From NCBI GenBank assembly GCA_964551115.1, contig CAZKBE010000004.1, positions 1 through 36,512 on the forward strand: 36,512 bases of DNA, written 5' to 3'. Positions 16,516-28,043 of this stretch are shown here, one piece after another. The notes beneath the pieces were generated by a model. That model did no database searches. It was not told the origin of the DNA and saw only the letters and a program-made list of their open reading frames with translations. The position numbers and the translations under genes were made by a program. The DNA comes from Candidatus Woesearchaeota archaeon (lineage in GTDB: Archaea; Nanobdellota; Nanobdellia; Pacearchaeales; GW2011-AR1). Position 1 is the stretch's first letter, and each line of letters begins with the position of its first letter.

Positions 16516-18855
16516 TTAGAATAATTTTTCTTGTCTTGTCTTTGAAAAAACCCTTTCAGGTTCTATTTCTAATGTTTCTAGTATTGTTTTTGCAATCGGT
16601 TGAATTTGCTTTTCTATATAGTGATCATAGTCCAACTTATTTTTTAGTTTTTGCAGTGGTTCAGGTCCTTCCAAGGTTATATAATATTCTATTATGTTTC
16701 CATCTAAACTGTCTAATTTTCTTGCAGCCTTAACATGAGGAGGTGTTGTTTTAGTGTATTCTTTTAATTCTTTTCTTATTGATTTTCTATAGATCAATTT
16801 TTTATCTAATTCTCCTTTTTTGACAGATTCTATAAAATCTCTTATAAATTTGATTATATCTTCTTTTTTGAAAACTTTCATTAAGAGTTCTTTTTGAAAA
16901 TCTTGTGCGGCTTCTGTCCAATCTCCTCTAATCGCTTCTAATCCTACAATGTTTAGTATTTCTTCTCCATTTTTTTCAATTAGGCCTGCATATCGTTTCT
17001 TTGCACCGGCATCATTCTCTATATCTCTTGTTCGGGGTATGATTAGGGATAGATATAACTTATCAAATTCTAATTCTAAAAATGACTTCCTATTGAAATC
17101 TTTTTTAACATATTTCTCGTAAAATTTGTTTATTTCTATTGGTAGTCCTCTGCCCAGCAATTCCGCCTTTTCTTTAGATAATCCCGTCGATATAAAAATG
17201 GAATCCGTATCGCCATAGATTACTTCCAATTTTTCTTCTTTTATTTTTTTAGAAGTTAATTTAATTATTTCTTGTCCGAAATTAGTTATGGCATTTCCAA
17301 TTTTTAGATCAAAATATCTAGAATTTGGACTTGCTAAAACTCCAAAGAAACTATTCATAATAATTTTGATTGCATAGCTTGATAGTTCTCTTTTCTCTAG
17401 TTTTGCTTTCTCTCTAGCCTGATGCAACTCTTCGATTATCTCTGGGAGAATTCCCTCTTGATTTTTGAAGTATGCTTTGTTTGGCGAAGTTATACATCCT
17501 TTTTCTGATTTTTCAATAAAACTTGCCGGGTCAATATTAAATGTTTTTATTATTGAAGGGTATAGTGATTTAAAATCTAAAACTAAAACATTGTGGTATA
17601 TTCCTGGTTTAGGAGTCATGACAAATCCTCCTTTGATTTTTTCTGATTTATTCTTAAAGAAGTTGGATCCAGAAACAAGATTTCTTTTTCTTGCTTTTCT
17701 TATATAAAGTGAGTCAAAACTAGCTATTGAAGCAGTTAGTCTATCCAATTGCATTCCAGTTAAACTAGCTCTTTCCATGGAGAGTTCTATTATTTTTGTC
17801 TTTTTTAGGATGTCATAAACTAATTTACAGTCTTGAAGATTATATTCTGCAAGCTTTTGTTGCTCTTTCGAATTTCCTCTGTATAGTTTTTCTATCTCCT
17901 CATGTCTTTGTTTTCCGGTAATTAATTTACTTTCTTTTAAGATTTGCTGTGCTACTCTTTCGAGTGTGTAGGATTCAAATCTAATATTTTTAATCGAAGG
18001 AGCTTCTTTTATAAATGGGTCTCTTATTAGGTTTAAACCATCTAAAACTAATCTTCCAGGAATATCCATTGTGGATTTTTTAAGGAAATCTTTTTCCAAT
18101 TTTATTCTTGGTTCCTTATTGTTTCTCCCTATATCAAAAAGAATGTTGTTTTCTTTGAAGAGTCTTTTTAGATATTCAAAGTCAAAGTTTATTACATTCC
18201 ATCCGGTAATAATATCTGGGTCTAATTCATTTATATACTCTTTAAACATTTCTAGACAATCTCTTTCGTTTTTACAGTCCGTTACGCCAGGTATTTTATT
18301 TTTTGTGATCATAAAGACTTTTTTATCATTTTCACTATATACTCCAATACAAAATAATTTCTTACTGTCTTTACTAGATTCTATGTCTATGGAAGCAATC
18401 TTTAATTTTGCTGTACCTGTACAGGCCGTTATCTTTGGATTTAGATAAAAAATACCAATCTTTTCTTTATTTTCAGAATCTCCTTCTATTTCTATATAGT
18501 CTTTTATCTCGTTGTCTATTATAAACCTAGTCGTTGGTTTTAAATCTTGTTCATAGGTGGGGATTTTGAATTCATTTATTTCTTTTGCGAATTCTAGCAG
18601 GTGTTTTTGATTTTTGAATATCAGTTTTATAACCCTTTTATCTTGGAATGTACTAAGTTTTGTTTTTTCAATTAAAACTTCTTTATTTGGGTCTATTTTA
18701 TCTATTATTTTTTTGTCTTCTTCTTGTATAAAAAAGTAGGGATAGAACTCATTCATGGTAGCGAAGCTTTTCCCATTTTCTTGCCTACCATATAACACAA
18801 TATATCCTTTTTCTTGAATTTCCTCGTAGCTTCTATAAACAATAAACCCTTTCAT
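16516..18855 (-). CDS. polB: Family B DNA polymerase, DNA polymerase II-like
   Basis: Exo motifs DIE, GWN..FD, YN..D; Pol motifs DFKSLYPSII, KIIMNSFFG, YGDTDS, KKRY. Confidence 0.96.
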   Translation of the reverse strand: MKGFIVYRSYEEIQEKGYIVLYGRQENGKSFATMNEFYPYFFIQEEDKKIIDKIDPNKEVLIEKTKLSTFQDKRVIKLIFKNQKHLLEFAKEINEFKIPTYEQDLKPTTRFIIDNEIKDYIEIEGDSENKEKIGIFYLNPKITACTGTAKLKIASIDIESSKDSKKLFCIGVYSENDKKVFMITKNKIPGVTDCKNERDCLEMFKEYINELDPDIITGWNVINFDFEYLKRLFKENNILFDIGRNNKEPRIKLEKDFLKKSTMDIPGRLVLDGLNLIRDPFIKEAPSIKNIRFESYTLERVAQQILKESKLITGKQRHEEIEKLYRGNSKEQQKLAEYNLQDCKLVYDILKKTKIIELSMERASLTGMQLDRLTASIASFDSLYIRKARKRNLVSGSNFFKNKSEKIKGGFVMTPKPGIYHNVLVLDFKSLYPSIIKTFNIDPASFIEKSEKGCITSPNKAYFKNQEGILPEIIEELHQAREKAKLEKRELSSYAIKIIMNSFFGVLASPNSRYFDLKIGNAITNFGQEIIKLTSKKIKEEKLEVIYGDTDSIFISTGLSKEKAELLGRGLPIEINKFYEKYVKKDFNRKSFLELEFDKLYLSLIIPRTRDIENDAGAKKRYAGLIEKNGEEILNIVGLEAIRGDWTEAAQDFQKELLMKVFKKEDIIKFIRDFIESVKKGELDKKLIYRKSIRKELKEYTKTTPPHVKAARKLDSLDGNIIEYYITLEGPEPLQKLKNKLDYDHYIEKQIQPIAKTILETLEIEPERVFSKTRQEKLF

Positions 18856-18929: not shown

Positions 18930-19961
18930 ATGGGAGTTCAAATTTCAGAGATTATTCCTAGAAAGGAAATTGATTTTACGCAAATGAATGGAAAAGTTAT
19001 TGCAGTGGATGCAATGAACACACTTTATCAGTTTTTAACTACCATCCGACAATCAGACGGTACTCCTTTAATGGATGGTTCTGGAAATATCACTTCCCAT
19101 TTTTCAGGCCTATTTTATCGTAATCTTGCTCTTTTAGAGGAAGGTATAAGACCTATTTATGTTTTTGATGGTGTTCCATCCGATTTAAAGAGAAAAGAGT
19201 TAGATATGAGGAAGGAAAGAAAGATGGTTGCACAGGAGCGATATGATGAAGCTAAAGAATCTGGAGATATTGGTGCCATGAGACGTTATTCTCAACAGAC
19301 CGTGAAAGTAGATTCGGGGATTATCTCAGAAAGTAAGATGTTTTTAGAGGCTATGGGCATTTCGGTTGTAGTATCTATTAATGAGGGCGAGGCAGAAGCA
19401 TCGTATCTAGCTAGAAAGGGATTAGTTTGGGCCTCTGCTTCACAGGATTATGACTCTTTACTATATGGTACGCCTAGATTGATTAGAAATCTTACCCTTT
19501 CTAGAAAAAAGAGAAATTCTTCAGGGATATTAATAGACACTAAAATAGAACTCGTTGAGTTACAGAGTGTTTTAGATCATTTACAAATTGATCTGGATCA
19601 GCTAATTTGTTTGGGGATAATTGTTGGTACTGATTTTAATCCGGGGGGAGTTAGAGGTATTGGACAAAAAAGGGCTTTAGAAATTGTTCAAAAACATAAA
19701 TATCCTGTTACCATTTTTGAATTTTTGGAAAAGTCCGATAAATATGAGGTGGGTTTCAATTGGCAAGAGATTTTTAAGGAGTTTAGAGAATATAAGAGTA
19801 ATCAGTCTGATTTTCAAGTATCTAAAAATATAGATTTTGTTAAGCTTAAAACTATCTTACTTGAAAAAGGTTTTTCAGAGGAAAGAGTGAATAACGGTTT
19901 GGAGAGATTAAAGGTCTTGGAAGAAGAAAAAAAGCAGAAAGGACTAAAAGATTTTTTTTAA
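18930..19961 (+). CDS. fen: Flap endonuclease 1
   Basis: MGV start, YQFLTTIRQ.DG.PL, EGEAEA, SQDYDSLLYG, GTDFNPGG.GIG, C-terminal PIP box QKGLKDFF. Confidence 0.97.
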   Translation: MGVQISEIIPRKEIDFTQMNGKVIAVDAMNTLYQFLTTIRQSDGTPLMDGSGNITSHFSGLFYRNLALLEEGIRPIYVFDGVPSDLKRKELDMRKERKMVAQERYDEAKESGDIGAMRRYSQQTVKVDSGIISESKMFLEAMGISVVVSINEGEAEASYLARKGLVWASASQDYDSLLYGTPRLIRNLTLSRKKRNSSGILIDTKIELVELQSVLDHLQIDLDQLICLGIIVGTDFNPGGVRGIGQKRALEIVQKHKYPVTIFEFLEKSDKYEVGFNWQEIFKEFREYKSNQSDFQVSKNIDFVKLKTILLEKGFSEERVNNGLERLKVLEEEKKQKGLKDFF

Positions 19962-19963
19962 GC

Positions 19964-20677
19964 TTACTTTATAGTGAGAAATTCAAATTGTATTTTTTCG
20001 AATTCAGATCCTATCAAAAATTCTTTTTTTGAGGTAAGGCGGTATTTTATATATTCTTTTTCATCTATTTCCTCTGTTTCAAAGTCAATTTCAAATAGGT
20101 CTTTAGTTATTTTTTTTATACATTCTTCTGTTTTACACCCAACGATTTCTCCAAATCGTTCTGGATGTATAAGTCCAATTTTATTAAATGAAATGTTTGC
20201 TACGATTTCTGGATTATATTTTTGAGAATCTATTGGGAAATTAGTTAGATTAATTAAAAAATATTCTTTTGTAGATCTTGTTTCTAGATCTATTTCTCCA
20301 AAGATTCTACTATACATACCATAAATTCTTGGATATTTTTCACTATCTACACCCTCTCTATTATTTTTTGATCTTTCTTTTAAACATTCATTTACCATTT
20401 TTGTAAAATTTTCTCCAGATCGCTCTAATCTCCACAAAGTATATTCCAAATAATTAATTTGTGGTCCAAAACTTGCGGCTATACATTCCTCGCCTAATTT
20501 GGTTAGTCTATATTCTAGATCTTTTTCTTCTAAAAGCCATTCTTCAGTCTTTTCAAATCCTCCGATTATTGCCTTGGCTTTATTTTTATTGGAATTTATG
20601 GAGAATATTGTAAATCCACACAGTAGTAAGACTAATAAAACAAAGACAACTACCGTTAAATCTGCCTTTTTATTCAT
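19964..20677 (-). CDS. Class III signal peptide (pilin-like) protein
   Basis: MNKKA/DLTVVVFVLLVLLL. Confidence 0.75.
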   Translation of the reverse strand: MNKKADLTVVVFVLLVLLLCGFTIFSINSNKNKAKAIIGGFEKTEEWLLEEKDLEYRLTKLGEECIAASFGPQINYLEYTLWRLERSGENFTKMVNECLKERSKNNREGVDSEKYPRIYGMYSRIFGEIDLETRSTKEYFLINLTNFPIDSQKYNPEIVANISFNKIGLIHPERFGEIVGCKTEECIKKITKDLFEIDFETEEIDEKEYIKYRLTSKKEFLIGSEFEKIQFEFLTIK

Positions 20678-20678
20678 T

Positions 20679-21266
20679 TTAATTTGTAGGGCAGTTTACT
20701 CCTAAGTATTTAATTAGTGTAAAGGATTTTGTTGGAAAGAAGAAAGAGTACTTATCGTTATGTGTTTTACCTTCTTCATATTCAAATCTTCTAATTTTAT
20801 CCAGTTCGCTTTCTTTTGGAAATGTAAAATAATAAAATGGTTCAAAATACCATCCGCCTGTACCGCCGCCTCTTTTTATTAATTCTTCATCTATTATAAA
20901 CAGCTGAAAGCATTGTTTGTTTTTAGATAGGTAGTCTGTTAAAGATTCTTGTATCCTTTTGTATTCTTCAGTATCCGGATCTAAGTTTTTTTTAGGCTCT
21001 ATTGAATCTATAGCTTCTTTAGTTATTTCATAATTTGTTTTGTCTTCATATTCATCTTCAAATAAGACAAATATTTGCCTTTGTTGCTCTGATTGGTTAT
21101 ATGCTGTTGTTTGTATAAGTGTTATTTCTTGTTTACCTTGTGTGACTCTATCTATTGCTGTTTTACTTGTACCCATAAAGAGAAATAAGAACAATATAAT
21201 GATTATCACTAAAAATCCAATAAACCAAGAAACTGTTTGTCCTATTTGGGCTTTTTTATTTGTCAT
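20679..21266 (-). CDS. Class III signal peptide (pilin-like) protein
   Basis: MTNKKA/QIGQTVSWFIGFLVIIIILFLF. Confidence 0.8.
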   Translation of the reverse strand: MTNKKAQIGQTVSWFIGFLVIIIILFLFLFMGTSKTAIDRVTQGKQEITLIQTTAYNQSEQQRQIFVLFEDEYEDKTNYEITKEAIDSIEPKKNLDPDTEEYKRIQESLTDYLSKNKQCFQLFIIDEELIKRGGGTGGWYFEPFYYFTFPKESELDKIRRFEYEEGKTHNDKYSFFFPTKSFTLIKYLGVNCPTN

Positions 21267-21798
21267 TTATATTTGTCTCCTTTTGTTGTATAGATAGTTT
21301 ATAGCCGAAATTATTAGATGCAGTAATCAAATAAACCTTTAAGATTTCTTTTTTCGCAGAAGTTGTATTAAAATAAATTGCTGTTTCATTGGCTATGACA
21401 CAACGGGGATAATTCTTAGCCATATAGCCTGCTGCGGCTAGGCAGTCTTGTTCATAATTATTTCCAAATTTAAATGATTTTATCTCCAATTCTTCCCTAT
21501 AGATCCTTAAGTTAAAAAAGAATGGGCTAGATTCTTCAAAATTATTTTTATTAAGATTACAAAAATCAAATATCATTTCCTTATCGATGTTTATAATTTC
21601 TTGATTAATATATCCATTTTTTACTACACAATCCATTATTTTTTCATACATCATTGAAGAATCTATATCTCTTGTGTCTACAAAAGCGCCAAAATAAGTG
21701 GTTGCAACTAAAACAACTACGGCTCCAACAAGTATGAGGCAGATAAACCACCAAATTGAAAGTATTTTTTCTCCTGCTTTTTTATTTAATCTTTTCAT
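21256..21798 (-). CDS. Class III signal peptide (pilin-like) protein
   Basis: MKRLNKKA/GEKILSIWWFICLILVGAVVV; four Cys in the globular part. Confidence 0.78.
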   Translation of the reverse strand: MKRLNKKAGEKILSIWWFICLILVGAVVVLVATTYFGAFVDTRDIDSSMMYEKIMDCVVKNGYINQEIINIDKEMIFDFCNLNKNNFEESSPFFFNLRIYREELEIKSFKFGNNYEQDCLAAAGYMAKNYPRCVIANETAIYFNTTSAKKEILKVYLITASNNFGYKLSIQQKETNINDK

Positions 21799-22268
21799 TC
21801 TATCTTTATAAAATATCTCCCCCCAGTTATTTTTTTATCTTTATCAATTGTTTGGATAATCTTTGTTGTTACCAGATCGTTTGGATTCCCTTCTTTGTTT
21901 TTTAAATTAATTTTTGAGAAATAGGGGAATGTAAAACCTCCTTCTGGTTTTGCTCTAACTGTGACTAATCCCTTATCGGTATCTATATTTATTATCTCAT
22001 TTATATTTTCCGCTGTTACGCCATTTTTTAATGCTATTTTTATTAAATCCGTAATATCTAGTTCAAACTGCATTCCTTTTTCCGCACGGTTTAGCATTAG
22101 GCCGATTTTTTTTGAATAGGCTTCTTCATAAACAAGTGCATGTGAAGAAGTTCTTTGTACAAATAAAAGCATAGTTACAAAAAAAGCTAGATTTAAGACA
22201 AGAAAGATTACAACTGGTAGGCCCATTTCTGCCCATTTATTCAATCCTCCTTTTTTTATTTTTCTCAT
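21795..22268 (-). CDS. Pilin-like protein with atypical class III signal
   Basis: MRKIKKGGLNKWA/EMGLPVVIFLVLNLAFF; ATGA overlap with the next gene. Confidence 0.65.
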   Translation of the reverse strand: MRKIKKGGLNKWAEMGLPVVIFLVLNLAFFVTMLLFVQRTSSHALVYEEAYSKKIGLMLNRAEKGMQFELDITDLIKIALKNGVTAENINEIINIDTDKGLVTVRAKPEGGFTFPYFSKINLKNKEGNPNDLVTTKIIQTIDKDKKITGGRYFIKIE

Positions 22269-22411
22269 AGTTTAATTTATCTAAGCGATGTTATAAATTT
22301 ATCTAAGTGTTGTTAGTGCTATCTTTTTATTATTTATTTTGTTAGTTCTTTAAATATCATTTAATTGTGCTAGGAGCAGTAAGTTTTTTACTAGGAATAT
22401 CTTTTTGACTT

Positions 22412-23485
22412 TTAAGCGTAGCTGGCTATTTTAAAACTTGGTGTCCCACTAAAATCCCAAGGCTTATACCATGGGGTTTTTTTATTCATTTTGGGGAGAA
22501 TTTCTTGAAATCCCTTCAGATCATAGGTTGTTAGAAATATTCCTGCTGCCGAAGTTCCATCTAAAAATAGTCCTTTATTATTTAACTCTTCTTCTTGTAC
22601 CCAATCCCCTATCTCTAATCCTAGGTAAGCTCCTCCGGCTGCACCAGTAAATAATCCTGCTCCGGTTTTTGCTCCGACTATTGCGCCTAATGTTCCTCCG
22701 ATCGTACTTCCGACTAGGGCTCCTGCAAGTGTTGGTCTTATTTCCATAAATACTATTGTTTTAGTGTCATCTATCCTTAATTTTTCATTTAAGAATGTAG
22801 AAGCATTACTTTCTGCATTTTCTCCTTTTACCATTTGTCCGCTTAGGATTTGCATTGTTTCTCCATCATAAGAATTTCTTAAGAAGTCCCAATAGGATAT
22901 TTCATAGTTTGGGACCTTATGACTTAAAAGGTATCTATTGAATCCAGATATTTCTTGGATATTCAATTGTCCTTCTTCATTCCCTATTATGGTTTTATCA
23001 AATTGAATTCTTGAGCATATTACGGCTATTGCTCCTATATTTGTCTGTGTTGTCATTTCTCTCCCAAATATTGCAAAATTTCCTCTTCCAAGCATATTCC
23101 AGCAGTCCGCCATTTCTCTAGCTAAAAGAGTTTTAATCTGTTGGTCTGCTTTAGATTTTTCTTTACTTATTCTATATGTGGAGTATTTGCCTTCTAAACT
23201 TCCAAAATCTTGTTCACATTCTCCTTTAGCCAATTTATTAGTCGTTACACAGATTTTTTTAGTTTTACACTTTAGTGAGATTAAGTCTTGCGCTCCCGCT
23301 AGGCTTCCAAATTTTTCGCTAGGCAGTGTTCCTCTAAACATCGCAGAAGTTGTACAGGCTTCTCTATCCAGATTTATAGAGGTGGTTAGTTGATAATAAA
23401 CAATTGACATTATTGCGAAAGTTATTACTACTATTATTATTCCAATAATCATGCTTGTGGAAATCTCTGCTTTTTTGTTTATCAT
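22412..23485 (-). CDS. Class III signal peptide protein with a glycine zipper
   Basis: MINKKA/EISTSMIIGIIIVVITF; GALVGSTIGGTLGAIVGAKTGAGLFTGAAGGAYLG. Confidence 0.8.
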   Translation of the reverse strand: MINKKAEISTSMIIGIIIVVITFAIMSIVYYQLTTSINLDREACTTSAMFRGTLPSEKFGSLAGAQDLISLKCKTKKICVTTNKLAKGECEQDFGSLEGKYSTYRISKEKSKADQQIKTLLAREMADCWNMLGRGNFAIFGREMTTQTNIGAIAVICSRIQFDKTIIGNEEGQLNIQEISGFNRYLLSHKVPNYEISYWDFLRNSYDGETMQILSGQMVKGENAESNASTFLNEKLRIDDTKTIVFMEIRPTLAGALVGSTIGGTLGAIVGAKTGAGLFTGAAGGAYLGLEIGDWVQEEELNNKGLFLDGTSAAGIFLTTYDLKGFQEILPKMNKKTPWYKPWDFSGTPSFKIASYA

Positions 23486-23616
23486 ATTCCTGTTGAAAGT
23501 TTATCTATTATTAAATACATTCCTATTCCGCATATTGCGGCTATAAATATCCATAGAATCTTTTCAATTAATGGCATTCCCTCTGCCTCTGCCGATGCTT
23601 TTTTATTTAATTTCAT
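23482..23616 (-). CDS. 44-aa micro-pilin-like protein (not in ORF track)
   Basis: Hand translation MKLNKKA/SAEAEGMPLIEKILWIFIAAICGIGMYLIIDKLSTGI; ATGA overlaps at both ends. Confidence 0.8.
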   Translation of the reverse strand: MKLNKKASAEAEGMPLIEKILWIFIAAICGIGMYLIIDKLSTGI

Positions 23617-24212
23617 TTTATTAAAAAACTATTATTTTTAAATTCTATTTCTAATTTTATTGGTACGGGGTTAAATTGCATAAATTTTGTTTCCACGCTT
23701 TGATAGGTCTTAGCTAAAGCTTTCCCCCCTACGTGTGTAAGTACATTAGAAGACATACCCTCAATATTTATTTTATTTTGCCTGCTTATACAAATCCCCT
23801 TTTTCTCACACAGTGTTTTTCCTTCTTTTATCCAATAATAGTTGCTACTTTCTGGACTTATAGTTCCAGTTGTTAATTCATTTTTTTGAGGTTCTGGACA
23901 CAGGCATAGGCAATTCTCACTACCACAACTAATGGGCATATTCAAAAATCCTTGTTCTTTTACAAATGGTATCAAATACCAGTTTTTAGGGCTCTCTATA
24001 AACACTGATCCGTTTTCTCCTTCTTTTAAAGAATCTAAAGTAGATTGAATTTCTCCCAAGGCATATTTCGCTTGTTCGTATTGACTATTTTGTCGCATAA
24101 TTCCCGCTAATTTTGATACTAACAAGAATAATAATACTATTGCCATAACCCCTAGTATAAATTTTGCAGACTCTTCAGTCATCCAAGAACCTCTTTTATT
24201 TATCTTTCTCAT
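23613..24212 (-). CDS. Class III signal peptide (pilin-like) protein with Cys cluster
   Basis: MRKINKRG/SWMTEESAKFILGVMAIVLLFLLV; CGSENCLCLC. Confidence 0.8.
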   Translation of the reverse strand: MRKINKRGSWMTEESAKFILGVMAIVLLFLLVSKLAGIMRQNSQYEQAKYALGEIQSTLDSLKEGENGSVFIESPKNWYLIPFVKEQGFLNMPISCGSENCLCLCPEPQKNELTTGTISPESSNYYWIKEGKTLCEKKGICISRQNKINIEGMSSNVLTHVGGKALAKTYQSVETKFMQFNPVPIKLEIEFKNNSFLIK

Positions 24213-24275
24213 TGATTATTTAGAGGAGAAGGGCATTAATAAAGTTTAGTATGTTCTTTATAATTAATCCTACTT

Positions 24276-25592
24276 TTATTTAGGATTGTATGTAATTAGT
24301 ATCAGATCCTTATCTCGTCTGAATTTCTCGCCAAGATTAATCTTTTCTAAATCAACTTTTCCTTCATAGCCTTTGATCAAACTTTCATTCCCGTTGTTCA
24401 ATGTATAGCATCCCTTTTTTGTTAAGTTTATAGAGATTCTTATTGGTTTTTCCACATGTATAATTGGTTTTTCCAAATTTATATTAACCTTTCCTATTCC
24501 TAGATTATATTCTTTTTCTAGGGTGGTGTTATTAATCTTTTTTATTTCTATTTCAATATTTACATTGTCTACAAGATTTATAAAACATCTTTTTTTATTT
24601 TCACAAAGGTCTGTTCCGAGACTATAGTAGTTATCTACCTTTGAAATAAAATAAATTTTATTATTAAACTCTAATGTGGCAAGAGATTTGGAATCTATTT
24701 CATTAGGGTTATTTATTAATTCTGTATTATTTGTTTTGTATATCGATTCATCTGCATAGAAATATTCATTTTTATCTACTTTTTCAACATGCTTATTTAC
24801 CAATTCACCCGTAATTTTATTTAGGTATCCGCCCTTAAGAGTAGAATAATACCAATCTGAGTTTATTTCTGGAAGATCTATACAGTCTCCACCATAAATT
24901 TCACAACTTCCCATGCATTTTTCTGCCTCTATTAGAGTTTCAATTACCTCTGGATTTGCACAAAGCCAACCAGGATTCGGATAGTATTTTGCATCATACA
25001 ACATTCTTAGATTGTTTTTTAATTCAGATACTTGAGTTTCACCTATTTCATTTTTTGTCCCAGGTAGATTGTTATCCCAATCATTCAATATGAAGCTATA
25101 GAGGTTTTCATTGAAGTTTATTTCTTTAAAAAATTCTTTTTTACCTGTAGAGCTATATTTATATTTGGCATTTCCAATACTTGTTTCCGATCCACCAAAA
25201 ATCCCAAGTGTTTTTTCTTTTTCAATATATTTTATATTCCCTTCAAAGCCTATCTCTAAGTAGTTGGCTAGTTGAGCATTGTTTATTTTTCCCCCTATTT
25301 CCTCCAAGGGTGTTTCATCTACTTCTTTTAAATTTAAAAAATAGAACTCTTTTTCACCAGGGGTTATGTAGCCTATAGGGTACTTACATTCAAACAGGAT
25401 GGTTTCGTCAATACCTATTTCCCTATCTTCTTCTCCCTCTCCTTTAAACCCGGGTAGATTTTTCATTATCGAGCTCCAATTCATCTTTGCAATAAAGATT
25501 ATGGCCATGAGTACTACAGCAATTACTATTATCCAAACGATTACTCCCTCACTTTCTAATCCAGCTTTTTTAGTTAGTTTTCTTAATTTCAT
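24276..25592 (-). CDS. Large class III signal peptide protein (minor pilin/adhesin-like)
   Basis: MKLRKLTKKA/GLESEGVIVWIIVIAVVLMAIIF. Confidence 0.75.
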   Translation of the reverse strand: MKLRKLTKKAGLESEGVIVWIIVIAVVLMAIIFIAKMNWSSIMKNLPGFKGEGEEDREIGIDETILFECKYPIGYITPGEKEFYFLNLKEVDETPLEEIGGKINNAQLANYLEIGFEGNIKYIEKEKTLGIFGGSETSIGNAKYKYSSTGKKEFFKEINFNENLYSFILNDWDNNLPGTKNEIGETQVSELKNNLRMLYDAKYYPNPGWLCANPEVIETLIEAEKCMGSCEIYGGDCIDLPEINSDWYYSTLKGGYLNKITGELVNKHVEKVDKNEYFYADESIYKTNNTELINNPNEIDSKSLATLEFNNKIYFISKVDNYYSLGTDLCENKKRCFINLVDNVNIEIEIKKINNTTLEKEYNLGIGKVNINLEKPIIHVEKPIRISINLTKKGCYTLNNGNESLIKGYEGKVDLEKINLGEKFRRDKDLILITYNPK

Positions 25593-25753
25593 CCTCTTCC
25601 AAATCTTAATAAACTTTTGAAATAGTCAATTCCGCCAGTTAGTTTTCCTTTTAAAATTATCGAGATTATTACCACAATTATTAGAATAAATATTCCCAAG
25701 ATTAACCAACCCATAAAGTCTGCAGGTAATCCTAATCCCTTTTTTGTTTTCAT
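25589..25753 (-). CDS. 54-aa micro-pilin-like protein (not in ORF track)
   Basis: Hand translation MKTKKG/LGLPADFMGWLILGIFILIIVVIISIILKGKLTGGIDYFKSLLRFGRG; TATA begins 29 nt upstream; ATGA overlap with the next gene. Confidence 0.82.
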   Translation of the reverse strand: MKTKKGLGLPADFMGWLILGIFILIIVVIISIILKGKLTGGIDYFKSLLRFGRG

Positions 25754-25888
25754 TATTTTAAGAGGAAAGGGGGATTAATAAAGCTTTAGAAGACTTCTGA
25801 AAATTTAAGCCTATCCAGTAAATTTAAAATTATTTTCTGTTTCTAAATTTTTGAAAAAGCTTATATATTGTAGAAACACTAGATCTAT

Positions 25889-26410
25889 ATGGTTATAGTA
25901 AAAGCAACCCTTATTTCTGGTAAGATCTCTTCAAATGCTGTGGAAGCTTTTAGTTTATTTGAAAAAGAGCGATTTGGTGAGCGAAGTGGAGAAAAAATAG
26001 TTTATTCCTTAGTAGAGGGTGCTTATTTAGTTGAGAATAAAAAGATGCAGATAGTTAATATTAAAGAGAAAGAGATTAAATTAAAGGAGTTAATTAAGAA
26101 TTTTGTAAAGTTGGACAAAAATTTTCTTATTAGTTATTCAGTTTTTAGGGATTTGAGAAAAAAAGGGAATGTTGTGAAAAGTGCTTTAAAATTTGGTGCA
26201 GAGTTTAGAGTTTATGAACCTGGTTCTAAACTTGGTGAGGACCATGCCAAGTGGATTTTATTTTGTCTATCTGAACATAATAAATTGTCTATGCAAGAAT
26301 TTTCAGCTAAGAATCGTATTGCACATTCAACTAATAAAAAACTTTTAATTGCCGTGGTAGATGATGAGGAATGTGTCTCTTATTATGAGGCTAGGTGGTT
26401 GAAAATATGA
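25889..26410 (+). CDS. endA: tRNA-intron endonuclease, short alpha4-type
   Basis: LVEGAYL, KSALKFGAEFRVY, DHAKW, R.AHS.NKKLL; Tyr-His-Lys triad present; 173 aa. Confidence 0.93.
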   Translation: MVIVKATLISGKISSNAVEAFSLFEKERFGERSGEKIVYSLVEGAYLVENKKMQIVNIKEKEIKLKELIKNFVKLDKNFLISYSVFRDLRKKGNVVKSALKFGAEFRVYEPGSKLGEDHAKWILFCLSEHNKLSMQEFSAKNRIAHSTNKKLLIAVVDDEECVSYYEARWLKI

Positions 26411-27579
26411 TTACTAATGTTGTGGAGATTAAACAAAAAATTTTGAGATTTATTTCTGAGCGTGGGCCCAGTTTACCTGTCCATTTAACCAAGATTAGTG
26501 AATTGAGTCTTACTTTTACTTCGGCAATTCTTTCAGAATTATTGGCAGATAGAAAACTTAAACTTTCTAATATTCGTGTAGGTACTTCTCCCCTTTATTT
26601 TATTCCTGGACAAGAAGAGAAGTTAGAGTTATTTATTTCTAACTTGAAGGATCCAGAGGTAGAAGCTTTTAAGAAATTAAAACAAAATAAGATCTTAGAT
26701 GATGAAAAACAAGATCCCGTTTTAAGGGTTGCCTTAAGGTCTATAAGGGATTTTGCGGTTCCTTTAAAAAACAAAGATAAGTTATATTGGAAGTATCATT
26801 TATTGCCTGATGAAAAAGCAATAATAGCAATTTCAGGTCATTCTGGGCCTGTTTCAGCGATTGGACAAGAAAGGGTCATTGGGCAACAGATTTGGGAGGA
26901 TATACAAAAACAACAACTTTCTTCAGAGAATATTGAGGAACTTGTAAGAAAAAAAGTTGAAGAGATTTCTAATCGGATCAATGAAGAGAAAAAAGTTGAA
27001 GAAAAAAGAGTGGAGGATAATCTAGAGATTCAAAAAATTGAGGAAAATACTAGATCTATTAGTTCCAAGAGGGTTGGAGAAGAAAATCTCGTGCCTTTGA
27101 AGAATATTGCGGAAGAGATTGTTTTAGAAAGTTTACCCAATAATCCTCCCAAGGATTCTAATTTTGGAAAGCATATTTTAGAATCTGAAACTGTTGTCGA
27201 AGCGAAGAATTCTCAAGATAGTGGTCTAGCAAAGAAGACTAAGTCAACTATTAAAAAACTAAAGAAGCCTTCATTAAAAGATTTATTTTTAAGAGAATTT
27301 GAAAAATATTTATCTGAGATGGGTTTTGAACTTTTAGATGTCTTGAAGAGTGATGTTGGAAAAATTGTAGCTAAAGCGCACAGAGACCGAGAAATTTTAG
27401 TTATATTTTCTGATAAGCGAAAGTTGGATGAAAAAGAGTTATTGAGGGATTTAAAAAAATATAATCTTCCTGGACTGGAAGTAGAGGTTTTCTTGAGAGG
27501 CGAGCCATCTAAGAAGTTTCTAGAACAAATTGATTTGCTTGGAAAAATAAGGAAAATTCAAAAAATTGAGGAACAATAA
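26407..27579 (+). CDS. Hypothetical protein with N-terminal winged-helix-like domain
   Basis: KILRFISERGPSLPVHL..FTSAILSEL..VGTSPLYF; ATG 26407 overlaps the endA stop (ATGA). Confidence 0.7.
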   Translation: MITNVVEIKQKILRFISERGPSLPVHLTKISELSLTFTSAILSELLADRKLKLSNIRVGTSPLYFIPGQEEKLELFISNLKDPEVEAFKKLKQNKILDDEKQDPVLRVALRSIRDFAVPLKNKDKLYWKYHLLPDEKAIIAISGHSGPVSAIGQERVIGQQIWEDIQKQQLSSENIEELVRKKVEEISNRINEEKKVEEKRVEDNLEIQKIEENTRSISSKRVGEENLVPLKNIAEEIVLESLPNNPPKDSNFGKHILESETVVEAKNSQDSGLAKKTKSTIKKLKKPSLKDLFLREFEKYLSEMGFELLDVLKSDVGKIVAKAHRDREILVIFSDKRKLDEKELLRDLKKYNLPGLEVEVFLRGEPSKKFLEQIDLLGKIRKIQKIEEQ

Positions 27580-27814: not shown

Positions 27815-27898
27815 TTTCTTTGAGGATTGTTTTAATCTAATTATCTTTGTTTTTTATATCCAGAAACTTTAAAAACACTTACTTATACAGCTAAATAT

Positions 27899-27970
27899 GG
27901 CTCTGTAGCTCAGCGGTAGAGCGCGGCTCTCATAAGGCCGAGGTCGGGAGGTCAGCACTCCCTAGAGCCA
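27899..27970 (+). tRNA. tRNA with CAT anticodon (elongator Met or Ile2), non-canonical T-loop
   Basis: GGCTCTG/TAGAGCC acceptor, GCTC/GAGC D stem, CGGCT-CTCATAA-GGCCG, GGGAG-GTCAGCA-CTCCC; TATA at 27868; T-run after the 3' end. Confidence 0.85.
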
Positions 27971-28043
27971 TTTTTATTTTCTAATTACTTTCTTTAAAAT
28001 TTAAAATGGGAATATTTATAAAGCATAATCTACTTTATACACT

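Follow-up and report, generated by a model that had tools for sequence, protein, structure and literature searches.

What do nine consecutive genes do together when their products share a basic leader and a hydrophobic helix and nothing more? The question is raised by a 36,512-nucleotide (nt) stretch of DNA, here called the window, from contig CAZKBE010000004.1 of a Candidatus Woesearchaeota archaeon. In the open reading frame (ORF) listing for this window, nine ORFs of 44-438 amino acids (aa) follow one another on the minus strand at positions 19964-25753; they are named g1 through g9 in order of transcription. A first-pass annotation took the block for a locus dedicated to the subunits of a hetero-oligomeric type IV filament (T4F) or tip complex, and the machinery genes, synteny and leader conservation described below support that view. 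We consider it quite probable that the nine genes encode exported subunits of a T4F-like machine that is conserved in Pacearchaeota/Nanoarchaeia. Specifically, the block would be the detached subunit operon of this machine, composed of families that are named in no curated library.

A common leader, and machinery genes elsewhere in the genome

Each of the nine proteins begins with a leader of 5-10 residues that is rich in Lys/Arg and ends in KKG, KKA or KRG, followed by a hydrophobic stretch of about 20 residues. The K(K/R)(A/G)-plus-helix pattern first described for the block is therefore present in 9/9 genes. A loose version of this motif, defined as K/R-G/A no later than residue 22, followed within 13 residues by a 16-residue hydrophobic window free of charge, is passed by 60 of the 1069 ORFs that a simple greedy caller yields from the 817-kb genome, and nine of the 60 are those of the block. 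Shuffling the labels 20000 times produced no more than 5 passing ORFs in succession, and nine in a row have an analytic probability of about 6e-9, which is so improbable that a chance origin of the cluster is excluded. The motif also extends to relatives: it is present in 173/199 family-assigned proteins (the nine of the window included), an upper estimate because start codons were chosen to favor it, and among the proteins without it, many have a related sequence (KNG or KQA, for example) or a start codon that is in doubt.

Beyond the helix, the globular parts show no mutual similarity (best blastp E 0.022), as the first-pass annotation had noted. Profile-profile comparison of the g6 through g9 families aligns only the first 9-39 N-terminal columns, at 44-92% probability, and the g5 profile matched none of these four. 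Since neither blastp nor profile-profile comparison found anything further, the nine proteins share one N-terminal module alone, a pattern that would be comparable to that of pilin-like proteins.

The machinery genes are located on other contigs of the assembly, which comprises 70 contigs, is 81% complete and includes the window as contig C4. Whole-genome family searches placed all peptidase, ATPase and T2SSF matches outside the window except for one sub-threshold T2SSF match (12.1 bits) over hydrophobic helices at 23396-23518. The earlier observation that the window holds no peptidase, ATPase or TadC gene thus stands, and other parts of the genome supply a peptidase and a platform on contig C10 and ATPases on C11 and, in part, on C60. 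The Peptidase_A24 family is represented by a single gene (C10:11488-12309; 37.2 and 32.6 bits), whose product has Asp19 and an AGGD motif at residues 78-81.

A platform-like protein was found by comparison with relatives (C10:8235-10436). It is a polytopic protein of 735 aa with about 9-10 hydrophobic segments around two soluble regions, and about 1 kb, which includes two small ORFs, separates the end of its gene from the peptidase gene downstream. The platform-like gene that adjoins the cluster in relatives matches it at 54-57% identity. Among platform homologues, 6/28 match T2SSF at E<=1 (best 8.3e-5), and the nearest Atlas cluster is 'GspF domain-containing' (Candidatus Woesearchaeota, score 0.98); the platform profile gave no match when compared with PDB sequences. 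The large ATPase, a protein of about 760 aa, is represented by its first 225 residues on the 2-kb contig C60, where it is cut by the contig end. Beside the large ATPase are two small conserved genes in divergent orientation (114-137 and 217-301 aa; C60:834-1906, locus L035; L023:606-1644), for which Pfam gave sub-threshold matches only. These may encode the coiled-coil proteins of the pilus-like loci described by Hamm et al. (2024; PMC11291902), to judge from the part of that paper available to us.

A second, complete pilus locus is present at C11:1943-7778 (L036), where three pilin-like genes are followed by an ATPase, two platforms and two more pilin-like genes. The 508-aa T2SSE ATPase scores 122.8 bits and the two T2SSF genes score 50.0 and 48.8 bits, and the two-platform layout matches 'system 1' as outlined in the available text of PMC13705601. 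Additional groups of ORFs with K/R-G/A leaders occur at C3:7638-23593 (L037), C9:22736-23807 and C17:1319-9712, and these include proteins of 722 aa and 2797 aa.

Gene order in relatives

In relatives, the same families appear in the same order between a platform gene and a peptidase gene. Twelve loci were taken from the surroundings of g5 homologues and 20 from the regions downstream of platform homologues, and families were assigned in them by jackhmmer. Each locus is an 11-17 kb view, so a gene that is out of view is not thereby shown to be absent. In genome G010 (L023) the order is ATPase, platform, g1, g2, g3, a small gene, g5 through g9, one or two small genes, and peptidase, such that all nine positions of the block are occupied. 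Genome G009 (L032) is laid out likewise, except that it lacks a g2 homologue. Both genomes pass Pfam cut-offs for T2SSE (55.6 and 46 bits) and for Peptidase_A24 (52.4 and 51.7 bits). A platform, the subunit block and a peptidase also follow one another in L039, L040, L042-L044 and L046, which start at the platform because the loci were cut there.

Block families lie directly downstream of the platform in 13/20 platform-anchored loci, 10 of which also show the peptidase; the loci that lack these families downstream are L041, L051 and L053-L057. Among the 12 g5-anchored loci, the platform is seen in 7 (all except L022, L026, L028, L029 and L030), the ATPase in 5 and the peptidase in 4. Across both sets, 10 loci have the peptidase gene at the end of the block (L023, L032, L038-L040 and L042-L046), with two genes intervening in L045 and L046, and the order g6-g7-g8-g9 is kept in 17/32 loci. 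Where the region is in view, a T2SSE ATPase is located upstream of the platform, and its best solved relatives are the Archaeoglobus fulgidus GspE (2oap, E 2.8e-30), CpaF (E 2.9e-20) and FlaI. The platform that is linked to the block is a single gene encoding 651-742 aa. Thus, peptidase and ATPase genes are present in the genome and the clustering is conserved in relatives, the absence of which the first-pass annotation had named as telling against its proposal.

The spread of these genes is broad. The C10 platform is matched in 299/301 genomes sampled from the phylum, all listed as the same class or closer, and mostly with one match each; G283 and G284, which are unpublished, are part of this tally. 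Identity in the matches listed is 40-63% across almost the whole protein, and the two genomes that lack a match, G102 and G317, are 97% and 93% complete. The best-conserved subunit is g5, which is matched in 39/41 genomes of the order (its own included); G004 and G007, in which it was not matched, have completeness values of 82% and 83%. A word-indexed search with g5 returned 74 clusters, of which the named ones are 'hypothetical', 'uncharacterised' or similar, and a profile search returned 3497 cluster representatives at E<=1e-3. The homologues are labelled Pacearchaeota, Nanoarchaeota, Nanoarchaeia or uncultured archaeon, which agrees with the initial assignment of the window to DPANN archaea.

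In two loci of the same genus (L029 and L030) and in genome G024 (L022), the block adjoins the tRNA-splicing endonuclease gene (EndA) as it does here, and L029 and L030 also have the PolB and FEN1 genes on the other side, as in the window. Judged by this gene order, the present genus has relocated the block to the interval between FEN1 and EndA.

Other genes accompany the block in some lineages. Across several families within the order, an OB-fold, RPA-like gene lies behind it (L024, L027, L031, L032 and L033), with RadA in all of these except L032; these calls are based on Pfam for L031 and on N-terminal similarity for the other loci. The placement of the block beside OB-fold/RadA or PolB/FEN1 genes may reflect a conserved order of informational genes or may have functional meaning. 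Signal-peptide-like genes, mostly on the opposite strand, are found inside the cluster in L030 (5887-6822 and 8778-10988), L024, L025, L029, L031 and L033. Two of the L030 inserts have a lipobox-like Cys, and one inserted gene encodes an FGE-sulfatase-domain protein (43.5 bits). Six inserted genes (from L024, L025 and L030) were used as queries, and none has a homologue in the genome studied here.

Block layout, individual subunits and the murein-hydrolase domains of relatives

The coordinates of the block genes, their upstream elements and the flanking genes are collected in Table 1.

Table 1. Features of the subunit block and its surroundings, in window positions
Feature	Position	Strand	Description
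PolB	16516-18855	-	family B DNA polymerase; flanking housekeeping gene
FEN1/XPG nuclease	18930-19961	+	flanking housekeeping gene
g9	19964..20677	-	237 aa; leader MNKKA; hydrophobic helix begins almost directly after leader
g8	20679..21266	-	195 aa; leader MTNKKA; Gln after predicted cleavage site, likewise in most orthologues
g7	21256..21798	-	180 aa; leader MKRLNKKA, helix, small alpha/beta head, two invariant Cys
g6	21795..22268	-	157 aa; leader MRKIKKG; first gene of the putative four-gene accessory set g6-g9
TATA-like element AAATTTATAA	22291..22300	-	centered about 27 nt before g6 ATG; AT-rich words are common at 30% GC
g5	22412..23485	-	357 aa; leader MINKKA, helix, alpha/beta head, six invariant Cys
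g4	23482..23616	-	44 aa; leader MKLNKKA, helix only; second mini-subunit
g3	23613..24212	-	199 aa; leader MRKINKRG, helix, Cys-rich core
Promoter-like element CTTTATTAATGCCC	24231..24244	-	ends 19 nt before g3 ATG
g2	24276..25592	-	438 aa; leader MKLRKLTKKA, helix, large head with 8 Cys; largest subunit
g1	25589..25753	-	54 aa; leader MKTKKG, hydrophobic helix, short amphipathic tail, no globular domain
Promoter-like element CTTTATTAATCCCC	25770..25783	-	ends 17 nt before g1 ATG
EndA	25889-26410	+	tRNA-splicing endonuclease; flanking housekeeping gene

Gene spacing divides the block into the units g1-g2, g3-g4-g5 and g6-g7-g8-g9, which are the tightly overlapping groups of two, three and four genes noted at the outset. 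Overlaps of 4 nt join g1/g2, g3/g4, g4/g5 and g6/g7, while g7/g8 overlap by 11 nt and g8/g9 are separated by 1 nt; between units, 63 nt separate g2 from g3 and 143 nt separate g5 from g6. Both g1 and g3 are preceded, at a distance of 17-19 nt from the ATG, by the same exact 14-mer, CTTTATTAAT(C/G)CCC. The positions of these elements would fit archaeal TATA boxes of nearly leaderless mRNAs. Hence the description of the units as TATA-led agrees with what lies upstream of g1, g3 and g6, as far as sequence alone can tell. A scan for bacterial sigma-70 promoters and terminators gave 32 sites versus 27.6 +/- 5.6 in shuffles, and is uninformative because the host is an archaeon. Two DNA runs from a single freshwater-metagenome study, which may be the source, are the only listed sequencing runs that contain most of this sequence, and no RNA run is listed.

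Rfam and ARAGORN report no RNA gene within the block, and their only matches in the window are tRNA-Gly(GCC) at 1873-1943, tRNA-Val(TAC) at 2447-2519 and tRNA-Met(CAT) at 27898-27971. Downstream of EndA is a 394-aa ORF (26395-27579) that has no Pfam match and is kept beside EndA in L022 and L030. An origin of the block from a mobile element or virus was considered and rejected because its GC content of 0.29-0.335 falls within the range of the window (0.28-0.38) and because g5 is so widely conserved in the order.

The helix-only proteins g1 and g4 are, by analogy, the best candidates for a bulk fiber subunit of the Flp/Epd kind. Orthologues of g1 (50-60 aa) directly follow the platform gene in relatives. 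Behind g1, other genera have a gene for 53-58 aa (L032:9033-9197, L039:2481-2648, L040:2501-2662, L042:2419-2595, L043:11729-11890 and L044:2340-2504) whose product starts M(S/D)ELT..QLIKII and has a helix without a basic leader, as if 'mature'; this gene is absent from the window. The same-genus homologue of g4 is 64% identical, and genes for 37-47 aa occupy the g4 position in L023, L029, L038, L045 and L046.

The largest subunit, g2, has only 4 homologues in the 32 loci of relatives. Its similarity to the SLT-bearing protein at the same position in G010 is limited to the N-terminal 66 aa, the head has no family match, and an ESM Atlas search with residues 45-438 gave no usable match. This variable large head could make external contact. 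Residues 1-107 of g3 align with residues 1-106 of a 335-aa amidase-bearing relative (E 2e-10), and g3 would accordingly appear to be the core-only form of a family that carries murein hydrolases in other lineages. Both g3 and g5 are suggested to be disulfide-rich headed subunits.

Six Cys are invariant across the alignment of the g5 family. An AlphaFold2 model of g5 from a 65-sequence alignment (pLDDT 77, pTM 0.79) predicts a helix at residues 10-34, continuing to 53, and an alpha/beta head. Inside the head, at about residues 252-299, is a hydrophobic glycine-zipper segment with sub-threshold Gly-zipper matches, which may be a membrane hairpin or a flexible loop; in the model, the glycine-rich segment (about residues 259-306) has low pLDDT. 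For g7, whose word-based homologue search returned only 5 proteins such that alignments were built from the fetched loci instead, the model (27 sequences, pLDDT 88) predicts helices at residues 8-36 and 43-58, short helices, and a four-stranded sheet whose four long strands span residues 93-161. The g7 family has two invariant Cys. Foldseek found nothing in the PDB at E<=1e-3 for either model. In a wider structure comparison, the best match for g5 had a Z of 2.8, and the best matches for g7 (Z 6.2-6.8) were PAS/Cache-like sensor domains. No pilin chain is among the matches listed for the two models, and a pilin fold is still compatible with these results. Both models would fit exported, disulfide-bonded heads carried on a membrane-spanning N-terminal helix, and the invariant Cys sets of the two families fit extracellular heads. 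The constant order of g6 through g9 suggests, by analogy, an accessory set comparable to minor pilins.

Some relatives carry enzymes on these subunits. In a Pfam scan of 180 cluster proteins from the 32 loci, 11 proteins in 11 loci have murein-hydrolase domains above curated cut-offs, and these domains sit behind a pilin-like N-terminus. At the g3 position the domains are SLT (L026, L027, L028 and L033), Amidase_2 (L024 and L025), Glucosaminidase (L031), SLT plus Amidase_2 (L049) and Peptidase_M23 (L050). An SLT domain is found at the g2 position in L023, and an Amidase_2 domain in the g7 orthologue of L043; these two loci come from the same family as the organism studied here. Pfam detects no murein-hydrolase domain in the nine window proteins, and the 81%-complete genome yielded no SLT, Amidase_2 or Glucosaminidase match.

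According to the portions of the literature available to us, murein transglycosylases are normally absent in Archaea (PMC8204110), and murein hydrolases are already known in the archaea considered here (PMC8204110, PMC9723730, PMC12352652); the available text of PMC12352652 contains none of the terms 'pilin', 'class III' and 'type IV'. The presence of four unrelated wall-cutting folds at equivalent positions suggests that the apparatus may present enzymes to bacterial murein in those lineages, and these heads would point to contact with bacteria there. We also entertain, tentatively and as a possibility that is the less likely outcome, a more far-reaching scheme in which exchangeable effector heads are fitted to a near-universal contact machine of Nanoarchaeia, with g3, and in some cases g2 or g7, as the socket. 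Lineages that live on bacteria would mount any of four unrelated murein hydrolases on a wall-breaching fiber, and in the present genus, where no murein hydrolase is seen, the Cys-rich head of g2 would be the lineage-specific effector or host-recognition module, for a partner that is maybe non-bacterial. If true, then the fiber is a device for breaching cell walls and more than a passive adhesin. The hydrolase-bearing versions in relatives offer a testable connection of the pilus with action on bacterial walls.

Alternatives, proposed mechanism and known systems

Several points weigh against the assignment of the block to a T4F-like machine. Textbook class III signals have the helix directly after the cleavage site. 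In the nine proteins, the best uncharged hydrophobic window starts 3-12 residues past the G/A, often behind acidic residues. Start codons in relatives were picked among possible ones in a way that favors the motif. The block is not linked to any machinery gene in its own genome, the cognate ATPase is incomplete in a partial assembly, and the C10 platform itself lacks a Pfam T2SSF match. For the nine proteins, cleavage by the A24 peptidase, assembly and expression are predictions only. The second hydrophobic segment of g5, the glycine zipper, could hold that protein in the membrane.

Finally, Pfam and NCBIfam gave nothing above cut-off for the nine proteins, with the Gly-zipper matches of g5 as the sole sub-threshold signal, and no pilin or class-III-signal family (Pfam models of this kind are, for example, Class_IIIsignal and Pilin_N) was matched by any of them even at E<=1. 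The 84+85 cluster proteins of relatives likewise matched no Pfam family of this type. In a control, 0/5 canonical-looking pilins beside the C11 ATPase gave a Pfam match at E<=0.01, and the test for pilin families is therefore an insensitive one.

Some of these observations would be accounted for if the proteins carry class-III-like leaders and remain tethered to the membrane without any fiber, either as an alignment complex that surrounds the platform or as a bindosome-like layer at the cell surface. The spacer between leader and helix core and the second hydrophobic segment of g5 are in keeping with such an arrangement, and the hydrolase-bearing subunits of relatives would function just as well if they were tethered. 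Moreover, the available text of PMC13705601 describes class III signals as widespread in archaea on binding proteins that are not part of filaments. However, g1 and g4 make little sense as tethered effectors because they have no head to display. In addition, the fixed gene order beside an ATPase and a platform in relatives argues for energy-driven assembly, and the nine families have only their N-terminal module in common. We regard permanent tethering as unlikely.

Alternatively, the block might supply the C11 pilus locus, with its 'system 1' or Epd-like layout, rather than the large-platform machine. C11 does hold the only complete set of ATPase and platform genes in the assembly, and pilins encoded apart from their machinery are reported for DPANN archaea and for Epd pili (PMC13705601, in part). 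Furthermore, only a single peptidase was found, and therefore both pilus systems must share it. This locus, however, already has five pilin-like genes of its own beside its ATPase and platforms, and the g1 through g9 families adjoin the large single platform gene in relatives, which together make the C11 assignment quite unlikely.

It is most improbable that the nine are ordinary Sec-dependent signal-anchor or secreted proteins of an envelope operon, with a motif that is a by-product of Lys-rich, AT-rich coding: the genome has about 30% GC, which favors Lys codons, and the 60 ORFs that pass the loose motif include clearly ordinary signal peptides or membrane proteins, but orthologues at 14-58% identity keep the G/A that follows K/R, the hydrophobic stretches are long enough to span a membrane, a peptidase gene closes the block in 10 loci of relatives, and a run of nine is not expected by chance.

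For the T4F-like machine, we hypothesize the following mechanism. The A24 peptidase of C10 would remove the Lys-rich leaders, which end in K/R-G/A, at the inner face of the membrane, after which the N-terminal hydrophobic helix would act as the common assembly module. The 735-aa platform and the GspE/CpaF-type ATPase of about 760 aa would then lift the subunits from the membrane and stack them into a fiber or a short pseudopilus. In this process, g1 and g4 would be the bulk subunit, g6 through g9 the accessory set, and g2 the external contact. The machine probably serves cell contact, and the attachment to a host that the first-pass annotation proposed would be one form of it. To our knowledge, no member of the Pacearchaeota or Woesearchaeota is in culture, and we know of no account of how these organisms touch, recognize and exploit other cells. 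The subunits provide targets for proteomics, antibody labelling and cryo-electron tomography, with g1 and g4 as candidates for the fiber and g2, g3 and g5 as candidates for exposed heads.

The machine resembles several known systems in part. Like the bacterial Tad/Flp pilus, it has an ATPase that in relatives matches CpaF structures, and g1 and g4 are helix-only proteins of Flp-like size, a likeness that we take to be one of size and architecture only. Unlike that pilus, it has neither a TadB/TadC pair nor outer-membrane parts. The g6 through g9 genes can presumably be likened to the minor-pilin and pseudopilin sets of bacterial type IV pili and type II secretion systems (FimU-PilVWX and GspH-K), as fixed-order sets in which only the N-terminal module is shared. 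This likeness is one of layout only, and a tip complex formed by the four would be hypothetical.

The Epd pilus of Methanococcus maripaludis has a short major pilin without a globular domain and several minor pilins, all of which are needed for piliation, together with a dedicated peptidase (PMC13705601, PMC3875500, each in part). Similarly, the block combines short pilin-like proteins that lack a globular domain with several others, and g8 has Gln at position +1. In contrast, the Epd or 'system 1' type has two platform genes (PMC13705601, available text), whereas a single platform gene, for 700-760 aa, is linked to the block in relatives. Pfam and NCBIfam scans gave no sequence similarity between the nine proteins and Epd pilins. 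In the Streptococcus sanguinis PilB protein (PMC8179133, as available to us), a pilin module carries a grafted domain, as is seen at the g3, g2 and g7 positions of relatives. The grafts of relatives differ from it in being enzymes that act on the bacterial wall, and the subunits of the window carry no recognizable graft.

Published statements on the pili of DPANN archaea, as far as the available portions of these sources show, disagree. A preprint by He et al. (2020; 10.1101/2020.05.14.094862) reports that DPANN genomes lack components of type IV pili, and Sivabalasarma and Albers (2026; PMC13705601) find that ordered T4F loci are rare in Nanobdellati, that pilins are scattered and that most systems are unassignable. 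The lineages considered here are outside the coverage of Makarova et al. (2016; PMC4858521), again judged from part of the text. Hamm et al. (2024; PMC11291902) describe two conserved type IV pilus-like loci, with CpaF, TadC and coiled-coil proteins, in cluster-2 DPANN archaea that include Pacearchaeota and Woesearchaeota, and a figure legend in that paper mentions filament proteins (FlaF and PilA) only for locus 1. None of the nine subunit families is named in the portion of the text available to us, and the figures or supplements may already show these genes. Thus, the term 'uncharacterised' in the first-pass annotation remains apt for the nine protein families, and no longer applies to the machine, which is already in print.

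The loci of Hamm et al. (PMC11291902, in part) join a CpaF-type ATPase and a TadC-type platform to neighboring genes for coiled-coil proteins, and this arrangement is conserved across their lineages. Here, the large ATPase is flanked by two small conserved genes (C60; L023, L025, L032 and L033). Unlike those loci, the subunit block in this genus is detached from the machinery. A pilus-like machine of this type was therefore already known in Pacearchaeota, and to this the present analysis adds its unannotated subunit genes as a fixed, ordered set.

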